Source of the DNA: a virus | Strand: one strand, 5' to 3' | Virus record (IMG/VR): IMGVR_UViG_3300009026_000007 | Location: 24,520 to 88,519 of that record | DNA: 64,000 bases | Shown: one piece after another, positions 24,414 through 45,305 of the stretch | Layout of the letters: each line of letters opens with the position of its first letter | Position numbering within the stretch: the first letter of the stretch is position 1 | Notes under the pieces: model-generated | Databases searched by the model: none | What the model was told of the DNA's origin: nothing | Seen by the model: only the letters and a program-made list of their open reading frames with translations | Translations under genes and position numbers: made by a program

Positions 24414-25809
24414 TCATTTTTCACTAAGCTCCTTTAAAGCATGTTGGTATCTACCAAACATAATATCAAAAGTATCTTCAACAATCAAGTTGTTCGGTTT
24501 AGGTTCTCCACGAAGGCACATTTTCCCACTCCCATGCTCATTCTCCTCATAGCATTTATGTTTAGGTCTTTTACCACATGTGCATAAGTAGGCATGTCCA
24601 TTATCCATTGATTATCTTCTCCATCCAACAAAAGAGTTGATAAATCAGGTAGCAAGTTAAGCCTAAAGGCCAAATTAAGGAACCAAAAGTTATGAAAAAT
24701 AAATCCTCTTTATTAACATAACCCCAATCCTTCTTACCTTTCTTTACGAGAAACAGAAAAGAGCCTAGACAAGACACCAGATATAAGATAATTGCTAATG
24801 TAATCATTTATTCCTCCAATAATTCTCACACTCAGATTGATAACAACCTTTTGATTTAAAGAATAGCCAATTGTGCTTCATCCCACTACCACATAGCGGA
24901 CATGGATCACCATTGCAGCCTACACGCATTAGTGGTGGCTTAGGCGGTGCAGATGGAGCTTTAGGTCTAATAATACCCTCTGGCATGGGTGTAACTGCTT
25001 TAGCTGTCATTTTATAACACTCCTTTTGTCAATACAAATTTCTTGCTCACCTCGTGCATGGTATAAAACACCACCTTTCTTTTCACAATCCGTATGTTCC
25101 TTCTCTACTTGTCTAATATTCCAAGGCAACCAAATACAAAATAAGATTATAGCGCAAATAATAGCAAATGTTTTCATAAATCCGTCCTATTTAAATTTCT
25201 TTCCACGATTATAACTAGCCTTCTTCCACTTGTACAGTAATCTTTCCTCTTCTTTCTGATAATCGTCAGCATATTTTAAATATTGACTTGCTAGAAGGGT
25301 CGTATCTGGAGATTCTGGGTTAAGGGAGGCTGCTAGCTTTCTGTAGTAGGCTGGAACACTTGGTTGTGGTAGGTCTCTTTTACCGCTCAATGTCCAAAAC
25401 CTCCAACACCCAACATGGATTAATTAATCCTCGTGTTTCTTTCATAACAAGGCTCATAGCTTCTTCTTTGGATGTGTATGTTTGAGACTGTAGGTACTTA
25501 CCAATCCAATCTTTCCAGTTCTGTGCATACTCTTTATCATGCAAAGCGGTAGTAGGCTTTTCAAGATCCATATCAACTCACCTTGTAAATCAAGTAACCC
25601 TTCTCGATAGCCTCAGCAAGCTTTACAAGCTGCATATTTCGCTGTGGAAGGTATGTGTAATACTCACCATCTTTCTTAACGATACTAAATACAGCATTCT
25701 CAACATCTGCAAAGCGAATAGATGAGATTGATTTCAATACAACTCCATCTTGTGCTGTGTAGAACGATGTTACTCCGTTAATTGTACGTACTTTGATGTG
25801 ATTACTCAT
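24414..25809 (-). CDS. cluster of small hypothetical proteins (24414-24608, 24601-24807, 24804-25010, 25187-25390, 25380-25571, 25573-25809)
   Basis: Tightly packed minus-strand ORFs; one is a membrane protein and one a Zn ribbon. Confidence 0.55.
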
Positions 25810-26399: not shown

Positions 26400-26577
26400 C
26401 TATAACACCCTTCCAATAAGCATTGGTGAACATCATCCAGCTTGTTTGGGTATTCAAGTCTTGGAAATATTTATCCAGTGTAGGGTGTAGCTTCACATTC
26501 ATCAATGTGGTATCCATTCCCCAAGACTGCGCAAGAGATACGAATGTCTGGAATTGATCTTCGTGTGATTTAACCAT
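26356..26577 (-). CDS. hypothetical protein
   Basis: Operon packing. Confidence 0.55.
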   Translation of the reverse strand: MVKSHEDQFQTFVSLAQSWGMDTTLMNVKLHPTLDKYFQDLNTQTSWMMFTNAYWKGVIDADTERREKGIYYV

Positions 26578-26871
26578 TATGGCTTGTCCTGCATCTTGTA
26601 CACTGAAAGAATTGTAAGAGGAACACTGACAGGAAAGAACAAAGCTGCAATAAAGCTACCTTTTAGACTAAATTTATGCTTGGCTGCATAGCAACACAAA
26701 GCATCATTGTGAATTGTTAACAGAACACCTACAACATAGATTATAAATAACATATTCCTCTCCTAAAACAATCGGTAAAATTCATATAACAAACATAGCT
26801 TATCATATGAACCTATGCAATGCAACCCCTTTACTAATAAAACGTCTCCAGCATGCTAAAACACCGCATAA

Positions 26872-36175: not shown

Positions 36176-36706
36176 ATGAAATTTGTAGAGTATATGAAAA
36201 TCAGAAATACCAACCCCAAGAAAAAGAATAGTCTTAGTACAGCCGAGGCAAACATTTTGGGAGTTGATATGAGTATCAGAGGCTGGATGACCAAAGATAC
36301 CAATCTAACAGACGATCAGGTAGAGAGGGCAGTTGACTTCGCACTTAAGTCTAAATTTATGAGGCAAGGTGTTAAAGATAACCTGCGTCCACTGTATATG
36401 AAACAACTTGACGGTATGGACTCACAGTGCGTGTATCTCATGGAAAATGAACTAGGTATGTTGAAAATTGGCATTAGTAATAATCCAATAAAACGTGCAA
36501 GGTCACTAAGCACAGGCAGTGGATTATCTGTAAATCTGCTTTGTTATTGGCAGATAGCTAATCCGGCAAGAAGTACAGAGGCAAAACTTCATAGACTATT
36601 CAATCAATTCAAAGTAAGTGGTGAATGGTTTAAGAGGGATAGTTTCGACAAAGAAGACATTGAATCAAACTTTAATTTTTCTTTTATTAGAAAAGATTTT
36701 GATTGA
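36176..36706 (+). CDS. GIY-YIG/T5orf172-family nuclease
   Basis: VYLM...KIGISNNPxKRxRxL...EAKLHRLF...GEWF. Confidence 0.85.
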   Translation: MKFVEYMKIRNTNPKKKNSLSTAEANILGVDMSIRGWMTKDTNLTDDQVERAVDFALKSKFMRQGVKDNLRPLYMKQLDGMDSQCVYLMENELGMLKIGISNNPIKRARSLSTGSGLSVNLLCYWQIANPARSTEAKLHRLFNQFKVSGEWFKRDSFDKEDIESNFNFSFIRKDFD

Positions 36707-37100: not shown

Positions 37101-37386
37101 GGTGTAGATGTATTTATACATACTATCTGGTCTGTCGCTGACACAGCCTCTCACTTAACACATTCAATCTTGACGAAGATTGTCTAATTCCCTTAAAGGG
37201 GCTTGAAGAATTCTGACGAGAGTTTAAAGTCTTCCCTTTGTGTGACGGGGAGCAATGAATTATGGGCTGCGCAACAGCCATTAAAAACAAGTAACGGTAA
37301 GACCTTTTCAGCAAGTCTCCCTTTGTGGGGTTTGTTACATTGTCCCTGTTGCGACATCCGGCGACTTGACTAAAGAGGTCTTATTT

Positions 37387-37953
37387 ATGAAAATTGAGCT
37401 AAAAGAGCCTTATTCTTCTGATTGGAAACTTGGTTATTTGAGAATTTCTAGTTTAGATGGAAGAAAAAGATTAGATTTATTTAATTCAAGTACAGAAAGA
37501 ACGACTACAGCTTTTGCTAGATATTTAATGTCAGTTAAAATTGGAAGGTATTTGACAGAAGATGAAGAAGCTGATCACATAGATAATGATGCAACAAATG
37601 ATTCAATAGAAAATCTACAAGTACTTAGTGTAGAGGAACATAAAGCTAAGACTAAAAGATTCGTTGAGGGTCGAATATTTAAAACCTGTGTTTGTAGTTA
37701 TTGTGGTATAGAATTTGAAAGGGAAGTCAGACAAATTAAGTCTGATAAAACCTTGTGTTCAAGGTCTTGTAATGCAAAATACAACAGGGAGTTTGGGTCT
37801 TGGACCGGAAAGCTCAAAAAGCACACCCAAGAAGAAGTAGATAAAATAGTGGAGCTAAGAGCTTCGGGTTTATCAGACTATAAAATATCCGATATAATTG
37901 GTATTCATAGGTCTAAAATACAAAGACTTCGTATTGAGCTTGGTATTAAATAG
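37387..37953 (+). CDS. HNH homing endonuclease with Zn finger and C-terminal HTH
   Basis: ARYLM...ADHIDNDATNDSIENLQVL...H; CxxC...CSRSC. Confidence 0.88.
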   Translation: MKIELKEPYSSDWKLGYLRISSLDGRKRLDLFNSSTERTTTAFARYLMSVKIGRYLTEDEEADHIDNDATNDSIENLQVLSVEEHKAKTKRFVEGRIFKTCVCSYCGIEFEREVRQIKSDKTLCSRSCNAKYNREFGSWTGKLKKHTQEEVDKIVELRASGLSDYKISDIIGIHRSKIQRLRIELGIK

Positions 37954-38039
37954 TCTCTGTCCCTCACGAGGTCTTCTAAGCCTTTGACATTAAACTAGAG
38001 GATGGATGTCACGGAGTTCGATACTTCCAGAGACTACCA
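37952..38039 (+). tRNA. non-canonical tRNA-Arg(TCT): 8/4 fold, no ordinary D-arm, long variable arm
   Basis: AGTCTCTG/CAGAGACT-A-CCA; GAGGT-CTTCTAA-GCCTT; TGACAT/ATGTCA; GGAG-TTCGATA-CTTC. Confidence 0.75.
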
Positions 38040-38046
38040 GTTTCAC

Positions 38047-38291
38047 CCACAATCACTAAGATTAACTCTAAAAAGATTGTGGTATTCACGCTGTCATTTT
38101 CCTCTCCTAAGACAGCACTTAAGATATTCTCTGTTCCTCCTCTCTCTCCTCGCAGAGAATATCTTCTGGCCTTGGATAGATTATACTAGTACTCTCCTTC
38201 TAGTGTAATCTTCGCTAACAGGGCCATTTCTAAATAATCTTGTTGTTCTTTAACGATAATGTCAGTGGTCTGATCAGGATTATTTAGAAAT
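38047..38291 (+). ncRNA. multi-hairpin RNA with CU-rich (anti-SD) loops
   Basis: Five consecutive hairpins, three with TCTCCT loops; G-U wobbles favour the + strand. Confidence 0.65.
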
Positions 38292-38301
38292 TAATAGTAA
38301 G

Positions 38302-38565
38302 TAATATTTCTCATGTGTTTTAAAACCTAGAGCTAACTAGGAAGTTCGAATACTTATCTCCGCAAGCGGCTTCTGATGACTAAAGTAGGATTAATTACCC
38401 GAAAAGGTTGGTAGGAAGCTCTATTCATTAGAATTGAAGACAATAGCCAGAGTTAATCACTGTGCCGTACTGGAGTTGTGAAGCTAATGTAGGTTGGGGA
38501 CGGTTGATTACCTAAAAGAGATAGAGTTGGAGATGAGCACCAACTAAAACACAGCAGAAATATTA
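38302..38565 (+). ncRNA. ~265-nt multibranch structured RNA
   Basis: Closing stems TAATATTTCT/AGAAATATTA and TGTGTTTTA/TAAAACACA with several internal hairpins. Confidence 0.5.
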
Positions 38566-38583
38566 TTTATAGGAATATATGAC

Positions 38584-38991
38584 ATGGCTAATAAGCAGCC
38601 CCATACAGATAAACAAAAAGCAACACGCTTTGATGGTGAAAAAAGTAATAGAAATAACAAAGGCAATTCTTCTACTCGTATCAAGAAAAGTAAGTTGCGT
38701 GAACTGGCTGACAAACTTATTGAACGTCAGGATATTGCCTTGCAATTGATTGACAAGAGTTTAAAGAGCGAAGAAGTTAACCCGGACGCTGTAGCAAGTG
38801 CTAAGTGGATCATTACTTCAATCAATTCCGTTGTCAAGAGTGCTTCAGCAGAAGAGCTTGGTAGCTTCAATGCTCGCTTGAAAGGTAAGCGGGATGATGA
38901 AGAAGCTGAACAAACTCCTACTGAAATCAGTAAAGAATTGAAACCCCGTTTGAGTTTGGTTTATGTTGACCCCGGCGAAGACGATGATTAA
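38584..38991 (+). CDS. possible terminase small subunit
   Basis: Basic N-terminus (TRFDGEKSNRNNKG), helical middle, acidic end; lies upstream of the packaging module. Confidence 0.45.
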   Translation: MANKQPHTDKQKATRFDGEKSNRNNKGNSSTRIKKSKLRELADKLIERQDIALQLIDKSLKSEEVNPDAVASAKWIITSINSVVKSASAEELGSFNARLKGKRDDEEAEQTPTEISKELKPRLSLVYVDPGEDDD

Positions 38992-39004
38992 GATTTAAAG
39001 AACG

Positions 39005-39470
39005 TCCTACAGAGCGAGTGAATATCGAAACTGGACCTTAGAGGTCGTTCTCTGTAAGAAATAGGTAAATACCTTTGGTTTGTGAGGAGCCACCACTAAA
39101 GTACAGAAAGCCCTAGACGTGAGTTTAGGCGAGCTACTGATACATACTTAAATGGGTAACTTTTCACGCTAAGCCCTAGGCTGAAGCCACTTTATGTGGG
39201 GGTGGTTTAGAGTTGTTTACCGACCTTATTAATTCCTTGTGTGTGCAGACGTACCCCAGCAATTTCTGCATGTTTGTTGCTGTAGGGTGAGAGCAAGGAA
39301 ACCTAACTAGATCGCAAGGTCTGGTATCTCAGCTAGTTCCTGAGACCCCGGCATTCTGGCGGATGCCTGTTGTAAGACACTACGGACAGACGTGTAGGGT
39401 TGTGAATCCCGTCATGAATCTGAGTAGGGCACTCATACTAATTTCACCTCAGAAAATGCCCACCTATTCC
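39005..39470 (+). ncRNA. structured non-coding region upstream of the tRNA
   Basis: GNRA hairpins (CCTAGAC-GTGA-GTTTAGG; ACTAGATC-GCAA-GGTCTGGT) and a pseudoknot at 39233-39300; no ORF. Confidence 0.5.
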
Positions 39471-39472
39471 AA

Positions 39473-39546
39473 GGGTCTATAGTTCAGCCGGTTAGAACAG
39501 AGAACTCATAATTCTTTGGTCGTAAGTTCAAATCTTACTGGACCCA
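39473..39546 (+). tRNA. tRNA with CAT anticodon (elongator Met or Ile2)
   Basis: Canonical cloverleaf GGGTCTA/TGGACCC, GAGAA-CTCATAA-TTCTT, GTAAG-TTCAAAT-CTTAC; followed by CCC rather than CCA. Confidence 0.9.
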
Positions 39547-39697
39547 CCCTACATTATAGTCAATTATATTCTTTGGTATAATTGATTCATTTGAAAGCAG
39601 ATGAGGCTGTCCCACAAAAAGCCTGTGTTGTCTGTCTACAGGCTATAATCCCTCAGAACAAGAGACCTAAAATAAATATAATATAAGGTGTTAGTTA

Positions 39698-43829: not shown

Positions 43830-45305
43830 GTGGCAGATAATGTAATTGCCCCAGCGAGCCGCCCTCAAGCCATGTTTCTGTCAACTCCTGATTGGGTTGA
43901 TATTTGTTTCTACGGTGGTCAAGCTGGGGGCGGCAAGACTTGGGCAGGACTTGCTCATCACGCTAAGTACATGCACGATCCTCTTTATAGGGGATTGACG
44001 CTTCGAAGAACAACCCCAATGTTACTTAAACCCGGCGCTGTTTGGGATGAAGCAAAACAGTTATACAAGTTACTAGACCCCGATTGTCGTGTAAGAATTA
44101 AAGATTTGAAAATCATTGCTAGTTCAGATGCCGAGATATTCTTTTCGCACTTTGAGCGTGTTGATGATACTGACAACTTTCAAGGTGCACAAATCTCCAG
44201 CTGTGTAATGGAGGAATTGTGTCAGTTCGAAGAATCTCAGTTTAACTATATACTATCTCGTTTGCGTACTAAGGCTAATATGAAGCCTAACATGCGAGCA
44301 ACGATGAACCCAGATCCAGATTCTTGGGTAAGGAAGTATGTTGATTGGTATCTTTATCCAGAAGGTCATGAATTATTTGGAAGACCTGACCCAGCCAAAC
44401 AAGGTGTCATTAGGTGGTTTGTTCGACTTGATAATGAATTGTACTGGGGAGAAAGTAAAGAAGATTTAGAACAACGTCATCCAGATCTTGTTCCGCTATC
44501 TTTCAGGTTTATTTCTGCTTCGGTCTACGATAACCCGCACATTGAAAAGAGTTACATTGCATTCTTGCAAGGTCTTCCCCGTGTAGAAAAAGAAATTCTT
44601 TTGCACGGCAATTGGGAGGCAAGGCCAGAAGGTCAAGGTCTTATAAAACGTGAGTGGTTCAAAGAAGAAGATCAGGAACCAGCATGGTGTGATATTGTTA
44701 AAACAGTACGGGCCTATGACGTAGCGGGTACGCTTAAGTCTTCTGACAGTGCTTACGATCCAGATTACACAGCCTGTATTAAGATTTCAAAGATGAAAGA
44801 TGGCACTTACTTCATTCACGATATTCAAAGAACACGTATTCGTTTTGGTGATTGGAAAGCCTTCATCCTAGAAAATGCACAAAGGGATGGTAATAAAGTA
44901 GATATTGTTTTACCACTAGATCCTAATCCCGCGTCAAAAGCAGCCACGACAATGTTAGCAAGAGAAATCTCAGCGGAAGGGTTCTTTGTGAGAACTATGC
45001 GTGCGAATTCTAGCAAAGTAGACAGGTTCCGCCCATTCGCGTCTATGTGTATGAATGGTGGTATCCGCATTCTAAGGAACTGCGGGACAGACTTTGAAAA
45101 CAAAGTATTCAGTGAGCTTGGCTTCTTTTACAAGGAGTTGGAGACATTCACAGGAGAAAGGAAGTCTGGAAAAAATGGTCATGATGATCTTGTCGATGTT
45201 TGCAGTGATGGCTTTATGATATTAGCACAGAAACAGATTATTCCAAACTTTACCGCAGCGCTTAAAGCTGCAAACCTAACTAAACCAAATCTATTTACCC
45301 AATAG
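43830..45305 (+). CDS. terL: terminase large subunit
   Basis: YGGQAGGGKT Walker A, MEEL Walker B, ATMNP, AYDVA and HDDLVD nuclease motifs. Confidence 0.93.
   Translation: MADNVIAPASRPQAMFLSTPDWVDICFYGGQAGGGKTWAGLAHHAKYMHDPLYRGLTLRRTTPMLLKPGAVWDEAKQLYKLLDPDCRVRIKDLKIIASSDAEIFFSHFERVDDTDNFQGAQISSCVMEELCQFEESQFNYILSRLRTKANMKPNMRATMNPDPDSWVRKYVDWYLYPEGHELFGRPDPAKQGVIRWFVRLDNELYWGESKEDLEQRHPDLVPLSFRFISASVYDNPHIEKSYIAFLQGLPRVEKEILLHGNWEARPEGQGLIKREWFKEEDQEPAWCDIVKTVRAYDVAGTLKSSDSAYDPDYTACIKISKMKDGTYFIHDIQRTRIRFGDWKAFILENAQRDGNKVDIVLPLDPNPASKAATTMLAREISAEGFFVRTMRANSSKVDRFRPFASMCMNGGIRILRNCGTDFENKVFSELGFFYKELETFTGERKSGKNGHDDLVDVCSDGFMILAQKQIIPNFTAALKAANLTKPNLFTQ

Follow-up and report, generated by a model that had tools for sequence, protein, structure and literature searches.

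What fills the 630-bp gap, free of any credible open reading frame (ORF), that separates an HNH endonuclease gene (37366-37953) from an ORF of 135 codons (ORF135, 38584-38991, + strand) in the virus record IMGVR_UViG_3300009026_000007? The window analyzed here is the 64,000-nucleotide stretch covering positions 24,520 to 88,519 of that record, and coordinates refer to this stretch unless a relative is named. An initial annotation, made from the letters of the window, had placed in the gap a putative small RNA (sRNA) that exposes complements of Shine-Dalgarno (SD) sequences in three consecutive hairpin loops. We find that positions 38040-38291 of the + strand most probably encode a stable non-coding RNA of about 250 nt, which belongs to a new, strongly supported structured RNA family of a phage clade. 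That it is a real, independent and processed structured RNA we put at a probability of about 0.9; the full mechanism, including occlusion of SD sequences by its loops, reaches about 0.45.

The minimum-energy fold of 38040-38300 on the + strand has an energy of -81.1 kcal/mol and contains five hairpins, whereas shuffled sequences reach -45.9 +/- 4.1 kcal/mol (z = -8.66, with none of 200 shuffles as stable). The three hairpins of the initial annotation are all found at their proposed positions, with the loops that it had described, and the additional flanking hairpins that it had mentioned correspond to H0 and H4 of the present fold. The RNA begins with a single-stranded 5' end, GUUUCACC (38040-38047), located directly 3' of a tRNA-like gene ending in ACCA. 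H0 (38047-38082) forms, in the single folds, a hairpin of 8 bp that contains a smaller hairpin and an A-rich loop; it hardly varies among close relatives, and distant ones show the same shape. H1 (38090-38116) has a 6-bp stem and the loop AUUUUCCUCUCCUAA (38096-38110), which carries the motif CUCUCCU at 38102-38108. H2 (38121-38165) has a 14-bp stem made of 13 Watson-Crick pairs and a closing U-G pair, and its 17-nt loop (38135-38151) bears CUCUCCU at 38144-38150, plus CCUCCU. H3 (38168-38225) is composed of an outer 7-bp stem with a conserved U-G pair, which leads through an internal loop to an inner stem of 12 bp (38178-38211), capped by the loop UACUCUCCUU (38190-38199) with CUCUCCU at 38192-38198. 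Finally, H4 (38226-38291) is a long A/U-rich hairpin, forked at its tip and with 17 bp in its lower stem, and marks the 3' limit of the conserved RNA.

Single hairpins with a CUCC loop and a stem of at least 6 bp are common in the window (55 on the + strand and 42 on the - strand) and, as detailed below, the number of AGGAGAG sequences is unremarkable. The significance of the locus therefore rests on the cluster of three hairpins, on the z-score of the fold and, above all, on conservation. Several other identities were considered: a group I intron remnant, a HEARO/IscB RNA, a Y-RNA-like RNA and a riboswitch were dropped, as none of them gave an Rfam match at E up to 10, and an anticodon-nuclease decoy was dropped because the loops are of 8-19 nt rather than 7. 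The RNA itself is not recognized as a tRNA cloverleaf by ARAGORN or by the Rfam tRNA model.

Relatives were gathered from viral and metagenome contigs, which were scanned with exact words and with protein anchors. All 16 members that were folded singly adopt the same five hairpins, some of them with little stem identity, and H2, H3 and H4 each occur in several unrelated sequence versions. For H4, present in 16/16 of these folds, at least three such versions exist, with a conserved base, and this hairpin was left outside the covariance models. The first of these models, R1, derives from five close sequences and spans H1-H3; it recovered all 14 initial sequences, on one strand. R2 is a broader model. 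In the 14-sequence alignment, 97.4% of the cells are paired, compared with 38-45% when the 3' partners are slid, double changes affect 32 of the 40 pairs, and the covariation score is 0.543 versus 0.03-0.08 for the slid controls. Extension to 28 sequences gives 94.2% paired cells (37-47% slid), double changes in 38/40 pairs and a covariation score of 0.550 (0.038-0.078 slid), and none of 500 shuffles reaches any of these measures. The double changes are spread over helix 1 (6/6), helix 2 (13/14), helix 3 (7/8) and helix 4 (12/12). These alignments were fitted to the structure of the covariance model, which favours the model, and the independent folds of single sequences agree with them. A combination of MAFFT and RNAalifold on nine sequences missed H2 through misalignment, hence the use of model-fitted alignments. 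When loops and stems are compared, as the initial annotation had suggested, the C/U-rich loops are kept while the stems differ almost completely and yet covary. One relative (L236, about 1170-1350 of its locus) has four C/U-rich loops rather than three.

A profile search with ORF135 retrieved 49 contigs. With an E-value limit of 1, R1 matched 28 of them, and with a limit of 0.01 it matched 23, every match being located 5' of ORF135 and on its strand; R2 added nine members within the locus, including L201. When whole records were searched, R1 placed the RNA 2.5-3.6 kb 5' of ORF135 in six further contigs and R2 detected it in three more (L210, L214 and L215). The RNA is thus present in at least 41 of the 49 contigs; the other eight consist of seven loci without a match, in records not searched whole, and one partial match at a contig end. 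Every ORF135-bearing record searched whole carries the RNA, hence no RNA-less relative can serve as a natural control, and a whole-genome R1 search found a single copy in each of five genomes. All members come from virus records of about 80-93 kb or from their fragments. The clade that has the RNA as a core gene consists of uncultured phages of about 85-93 kb, which are distant relatives of the Felix O1-like phages.

Outside this clade, blastn of 37900-38600 against INPHARED returned no match among cultured phages. Pseudomonas phage vB_PsaM_M1, the nearest cultured phage by terminase, is without a copy (best R1 match of 11.1 bits, E = 0.54; no R2 candidate). A degenerate pattern derived from the RNA picked out at least 80 loci in bacterial genomes, with no R1 match in the 80 listed, a scan that is neither a host clue nor exhaustive; in viral contigs the pattern gave 53 stretches, and among the 47 new ones two are true members. 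Literature searches, which did not cover the article supplements where phage sRNAs might be listed, found no description of the RNA. Rfam 15 holds no family for it, its sole match being a sub-threshold one to ar14.

On which strand does this RNA act? The initial annotation had chosen the + strand from the wobble pairs in the stems, and the RNA of the window indeed has six G-U pairs on + and none on -. The minus-strand fold of 38040-38300 is weaker, at -70.6 kcal/mol (z = -4.74), and the + strand is the more stable in 14/14 members, with 83 G-U pairs against 33 on the minus strand. The outer H3 pair 136/198 is U-G in 14, U-A in five and C-G in four of the 23 sequences with letters at these columns, and its U-G state would become a C-A mismatch on the minus strand. 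The covariance-model matches all lie on the strand of ORF135, and the genes and tRNAs around the RNA are all on the + strand. These observations bear on the alternative that the initial annotation had kept, namely a minus-strand RNA whose AGGAGAG/GGA loops would act as a sponge for CsrA/RsmA in the manner of CsrB/RsmZ. The minus fold does expose one to three GGA per loop, and a promoter-like match exists at 38209-38180 (-), but the latter sits within a stem of non-conserved sequence and the Rfam Csr/Rsm models have no match at the RNA, the sole RsmY match (16.8 bits, 37619-37769) falling outside it. With folding energies and G-U counts both asymmetric, we consider a minus-strand product highly improbable.

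The same asymmetry speaks to a second possibility, that the inverted repeats act in DNA as protein-binding or cruciform sites, for example as a packaging or replication signal. Their position upstream of the head-gene block, whose large terminase gene (TerL) is at 43830, would suit such a role, but the compensatory changes pass through G-U and not A-C intermediates and are strand-asymmetric, which is a signature of RNA rather than of duplex DNA. Moreover, the stem sequence is not conserved, unlike that of protein-bound DNA repeats, and ORF135 has no terminase match. A purely DNA-level element is accordingly just as hard to credit.

In the alignments, conservation begins abruptly at 38040 and stops after H4, while the sequences 5' of the RNA are unrelated among members, which implies that there is no conserved promoter. 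The 5' motif could be placed in 31 of the 33 members examined, and a CCA directly precedes its conserved G in 11 of these 31. Six of the CCA junctions are ARAGORN-called tRNAs that end exactly there (three Thr, one Arg, one Gly and one Leu), and in two further members a tRNA-Arg ends 10 nt 5' of the RNA. In the window, an odd tRNA-Arg(UCU)-like gene ends with ACCA at 38039 and abuts the RNA. The presence of the 5' end behind the CCA of different tRNAs supports a release by tRNA processing, in line with what the initial annotation had supposed. The junction reads AG|UUUCAC in 23/31 members; RNase E of Salmonella reportedly prefers R-N|W-U-U, a pattern that this junction fits and that we take as a lead only. 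On the 3' side, the tRNA-Gln of relative L195 (1405-1478 of its locus) begins some 5 nt beyond H4 and precedes ORF135, and in many members there are flanking tRNAs on the strand of the RNA. Most simply, the RNA would belong to a tRNA precursor, from which the tRNA-maturing enzymes release it, and H4 is a possible processing site that may provide the 3' cut. The copy of the window may be driven by a promoter-like match at 37870-37898, which is a consensus match only.

Traces of the locus were found in RNA libraries, for which the data consisted of assembled Logan contigs of public runs only. A 389-nt contig from a soil RNA library covers 38039-38149 (H0, H1 and half of H2), joined to the upstream tRNA region of a relative. 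A 4415-nt contig from a wastewater RNA library extends over 37948-38231 with an identical odd tRNA; its H0-H3 region shows six differences and three gaps in 193 nt, and about 350 nt of other sequence lie between the odd tRNA and the RNA. Two estuary runs yielded no contig over 38040-38291, from which nothing follows, as an absence cannot be read from contigs.

ORF135 is found 3' of the RNA in every member examined, and this constant order raises the question of whether the hairpins serve ORF135 itself, as a cis-acting leader or processing cassette that punctuates the tRNA-ORF135 precursor or controls ORF135 translation. In 7/10 close relatives only about 25 nt separate the end of H4 from the start of ORF135, the RNA is always 5' of ORF135 on the same strand, and H4 is a long duplex of the kind that RNase III would cut. 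However, ORF135 begins anywhere from about 25 nt to about 3.6 kb after the RNA, and the intervening sequence can hold the tRNA-Gln in L195, an insert of about 290 nt in the window (38292-38583) as in L014 and L006, and, by eye, tRNA-like pieces in L003 and L005. Also by eye, the SD region of ORF135, of the AGGAA or AAGGU kind, lies outside H4 and is not sequestered by it, and a plain spacer would not retain a 7-nt loop motif three times. We judge a cis-acting role improbable: the RNA and ORF135 are linked, yet the RNA is independent of their proximity and is probably not an ORF135 leader. The ORF135 protein has a conserved basic N-terminal block; it gave no match in Pfam, PHROG and PDB sequence searches and none by tblastn in cultured phages, and in the Atlas it led only to viral clusters without a name and, at 0.91, to DUF5681.

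The part of the RNA that resists sequence change is the loops. Among 47 C/U-rich loops in 16 RNAs, UCUCC is found in 45, CUCUCCU in 38 and CCUCC in eight, and the loop motif has an unpaired probability of 0.99-1.0. The conserved core CUCUCCU is the exact complement of AGGAGAG, and the statement of the initial annotation that the loops complement SD sequences used in this DNA holds, including for its five named sites (near 2790, 6973, 8279, 17293 and 50124). AGGAGAG occurs 13 times on the two strands of the window: nine copies are SD sequences, placed 3-6 nt before an ATG that opens an ORF of 40 aa or more, another three correspond to the loops read on the opposite strand, and the remaining one has a different location. 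This count is not striking, since 7.15 +/- 2.78 are expected and 3 of 100 shuffles reach 13. For AGGAG in SD position (4-11 nt before the ATG of an ORF of 40 codons or more), the dinucleotide that follows is most often AG, in 9/38 cases in the window and 20/66 in the loci of relatives; elsewhere in the window, AGGAG is followed by AG in 4/64 cases, three of them being the loops. The last two bases of AGGAGAG bring no gain in pairing with the canonical anti-SD core CCUCC, while they complete a 7-base match with the loops. The three loops are most simply explained as anti-SD pairing sites. AGGAGG in SD position is rare in the clade (2/38 in the window and 2/66 in the relatives) and accounts for 23/57 in vB_PsaM_M1. 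Such avoidance of AGGAGG and preference for AGGAGA(G) would fit a co-adaptation with the loops, and equally an effect of the host or of base composition.

This arrangement recalls the cuckoo RNAs, which correspond to the Rfam family ar14 (RF02344; RSs0680/CcsR in Rhodobacter, SmelC397 and others in Sinorhizobium). They are described as two to four adjacent hairpins with variable stems and a loop motif, CCUCCUCCC, that resembles the anti-SD sequence (PMC4615179). The phage RNA shares with them three adjacent motif-bearing hairpins, in 16/16 singly folded members, and covarying stems, and Infernal pairs the three hairpins of the window with three ar14 hairpins. Unlike in the cuckoo RNAs, however, CCUCCUCCC is found in 0/47 of the phage loops, whose core is CUCUCCU, and the match to the ar14 model (23.6 bits, E = 0.22) does not reach the gathering threshold of 58.8. 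Furthermore, the cuckoo RNAs are alphaproteobacterial chromosomal or plasmid genes, whereas the phage RNA is a gene of a tRNA cluster with the extra hairpins H0 and H4. We regard it as an analogue of the cuckoo RNAs and not as a member of their family, the design being the same and the motif, score and host range different, and we read it as a phage variant of the multi-hairpin anti-SD type of sRNA.

Other known RNAs resemble it in part. In the C-rich-loop sRNAs of Firmicutes, S. aureus RNAIII and related molecules, the loop motif is proposed to seed pairing with ribosome-binding sites (PMC4615179). They have in common with the phage RNA several hairpin loops with a short C-rich motif, but this motif is UCCC, and these sRNAs are host-encoded, without sequence relation to the phage RNA and without a tRNA context. 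RsaE and the Listeria LhrC RNAs may be counted in this group as well. Unlike a classical Hfq-dependent sRNA, the phage RNA has no intrinsic terminator hairpin with a U tail at its 3' end. RNAC and RNAD of phage T4 are small stable RNAs of the tRNA region, with roles given as unknown (PMC3014915), and are classed as late RNAs (PMC9697503). Like the present RNA they lie in a phage tRNA cluster, on the strand of the tRNAs; the likeness considered here is one of location, and the cited passages do not mention anti-SD loops in RNAC or RNAD.

Conserved single-stranded loops could also be read by a protein. In such a case, they would be sites for ribosomal protein S1, for another host protein that binds single-stranded RNA or for the basic-headed product of ORF135, and the RNA would titrate or deliver that protein with no pairing to messages. 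One loop motif repeated three times on variable stems is the design of a protein sponge as well, and ORF135, which encodes a basic N-terminal block and belongs to no known family, is linked to the RNA in at least 41/49 contigs. We know of no bacterial protein that reads CUCUCCU loops, though no search aimed at one was made. Besides, ORF135 may be as far as 3.6 kb away, and the motif is the exact complement of the SD favoured by the clade, which a protein site does not require. A precedent for a protein partner comes from the cuckoo system itself, where a small neighbouring protein is described as RNA-binding and involved in sRNA maturation (PMC8034643). On balance, we think it unlikely that the RNA is a decoy or scaffold for a protein.

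A different use of the same complementarity would be the capture of purine-rich host RNAs, either of the CsrB/RsmY/RsmZ type or another sRNA, which would free CsrA/RsmA or disable a host response. The loops complement A/GGAGA-type motifs in general, the nearest cultured relatives infect Pseudomonas, and Pseudomonas uses Rsm RNAs. The phage RNA shares with CsrB, RsmY and RsmZ a short motif repeated in hairpin loops on variable stems; these RNAs show GGA in their loops and bind CsrA/RsmA, whereas the + strand loops of the phage RNA contain only C and U and form the complement of GGA. Rsm/Csr sites need GGA only, while the 7-nt core of the loops exactly matches the SD type of the phage. We consider a sponge for host RNAs quite improbable.

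Anti-SD pairing as the function of the loops would involve the following steps. The RNA would be transcribed within the precursor of the tRNA cluster and cut out of it by host enzymes of tRNA and mRNA processing, with a 5' end at or just after the CCA, at the AG|UUUCACC junction, and a 3' end beyond the long H4 duplex. Its three stems, rigid and free to evolve, would then present three single-stranded CUCUCCU loops able to pair with AGGAG(AG) SD sequences, above all with the AGGAGAG of the phage's own genes, on which the match would extend over 7 bases, two beyond the canonical anti-SD core CCUCC. Such pairing would block ribosome binding and lower the translation of a subset of messages, as an RNA counterpart of the action of T4 RegB on GGAG. 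RegB inactivates early messages by cutting the GGAG of their SD sequences (PMC3014915) and is the closest functional precedent; it is, however, a protein nuclease, whereas the RNA proposed here would act as an antisense molecule with no cleavage implied. We infer that the RNA exists as a discrete molecule, that it pairs with SD sequences in vivo and that messages are affected by this pairing.

Which messages would be concerned? The comparison of predicted loop-leader duplexes, made on crude gene calls (138 ORFs), gave median energies of -9.25 kcal/mol in the small-gene blocks (1-35.1 kb, n = 100) and -6.70 kcal/mol in the structural block (n = 37; p = 0.002). Among individual sites, the best is the SD of a 58-codon ORF (26577-26753, -), where 12 nt are perfectly complementary to loop 1; this ORF encodes a two-helix membrane protein with a single weak match to a PHROG annotated as membrane protein (E = 0.004). 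In five relatives, the 45-nt leader and the first codons of this gene (26577-26795, -) are almost invariant, even where the protein falls to 38% identity. This leader is a candidate target of the RNA, or simply a conserved promoter and ribosome-binding site.

Several results weigh against this mechanism or against parts of it. No terminator-like site is listed in 38040-38300, those of the + strand being at 39034 and 39184, and H4 is followed by AAAU with no U run. The two RNA-library contigs described above are both part of long, evenly covered stretches; they therefore do not prove a discrete RNA and could derive from DNA or from a whole operon. Concerning the SD sequences, AG follows AGGAG in 8/57 cases in the RNA-less control phage vB_PsaM_M1, where it is therefore fairly common too, and complementarity to GGAG-type SD sequences is generic and would reach late genes as well. 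Ordinary anti-SD pairing is also stronger in the small-gene blocks (p = 0.012), and the difference between loop and ordinary SD pairing is not significant (p = 0.095). The 58-codon ORF is not supported as a specific target, as the match to loop 1 shortens to 9 nt in four relatives and to 7 nt in one, with no covariation between the two. The interpretation offered by the initial annotation is partly supported, namely for the structured + strand RNA, its conserved loops, their SD complementarity and the tRNA junction; the global translational silencing that it had proposed, as an early-to-late switch or a host shut-off, would go further, and for class-specific targeting the comparison above gives only a hint, without significance.

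A more specific scenario, which we consider doubtful, would make of the RNA a translational timer that uses AGGAGAG as a private extension of the SD code: accumulating from the tRNA precursor, the RNA would outcompete ribosomes, and the messages switched off would be mostly those of small early-type genes, including that of the conserved 58-aa membrane protein. If this were true, the RNA would amount to an antisense version of T4 RegB.

Few phage-encoded regulatory RNAs are known, and to our knowledge none has been described that is matured by tRNA processing and acts on many of the phage's own genes. For T4, a review of 2010 states that no trans-acting regulatory RNA had been functionally characterized (PMC3014915). 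In the present case, an RNA with strong covariation is maintained across a whole clade of large environmental phages, at a location similar to the T4 tRNA region, and its sequence suggests a testable role, the pairing with the clade's own ribosome-binding sites. Were this role confirmed, phage tRNA clusters would double as factories of regulatory RNAs, the bacterial multi-hairpin anti-SD sRNAs would have a phage counterpart, and a function could be proposed for similar orphan RNAs of other phages. Whatever its function, the RNA represents a clean new family for RNA databases, with two covariance models, and a marker of this phage clade.

The virus record is 88.5 kb in length, is rated 100% complete and has a G+C content of about 39%. 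The phage genes of the window include those for a T4-type large terminase, a Mu-type portal, an S49 prohead protease and an E-type capsid protein, the RNA locus being upstream of this head-gene block. The closest terminases are those of the Pseudomonas phages vB_PsaM_M1 (47% identity; classified in Ounavirinae) and phiPMW (43%). The sole tRNA called in the window by ARAGORN and Rfam is a tRNA-Met at 39473-39548.

The odd tRNA-Arg(UCU)-like gene (37952-38039, +) was recognized from its fold, which comprises an acceptor stem, an anticodon arm with the loop CUUCUAA, a long extra arm and a T arm but no D hairpin, and it was called by neither ARAGORN nor Rfam. Its first bases touch the stop codon of the HNH gene. 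Homing-endonuclease genes are found near the RNA, with a T5orf172/GIY-YIG-like ORF at 36176-36706 and the HNH ORF at 37366-37953, and in relative L002 a different ORF (about 2300-2760), HNH-like by eye, ends at the first base of the RNA; the tRNA/RNA locus looks like a hotspot of mobile-endonuclease insertion. The tRNA-like pieces observed by eye between the RNA and ORF135 in L003 (about 2895-2965) and L005 (about 2775-2860) have a T-arm and CCA-like ends and no ARAGORN call, and may be more genes of the same "rewired tRNA" kind. Non-coding blocks 5' of the RNA are, again by eye, common to some distant relatives (L003, 2300-2420; L005, 2320-2460; L004, 2660-2720) and may be further structured RNAs of the same island.

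A last observation concerns the insert, about 290 nt long, that separates H4 from ORF135 in the window, L014 and L006 only. In each of two estuary metatranscriptome runs, which come from two studies, there is one short contig (218 and 185 nt) that is 100% identical to the + strand segment 38337-38554 of this insert and to nothing else in 37300-39600, and both contigs stop at 38554. The segment has no Rfam match and a fold z-score of -3.1, and it may represent a second abundant stable RNA.

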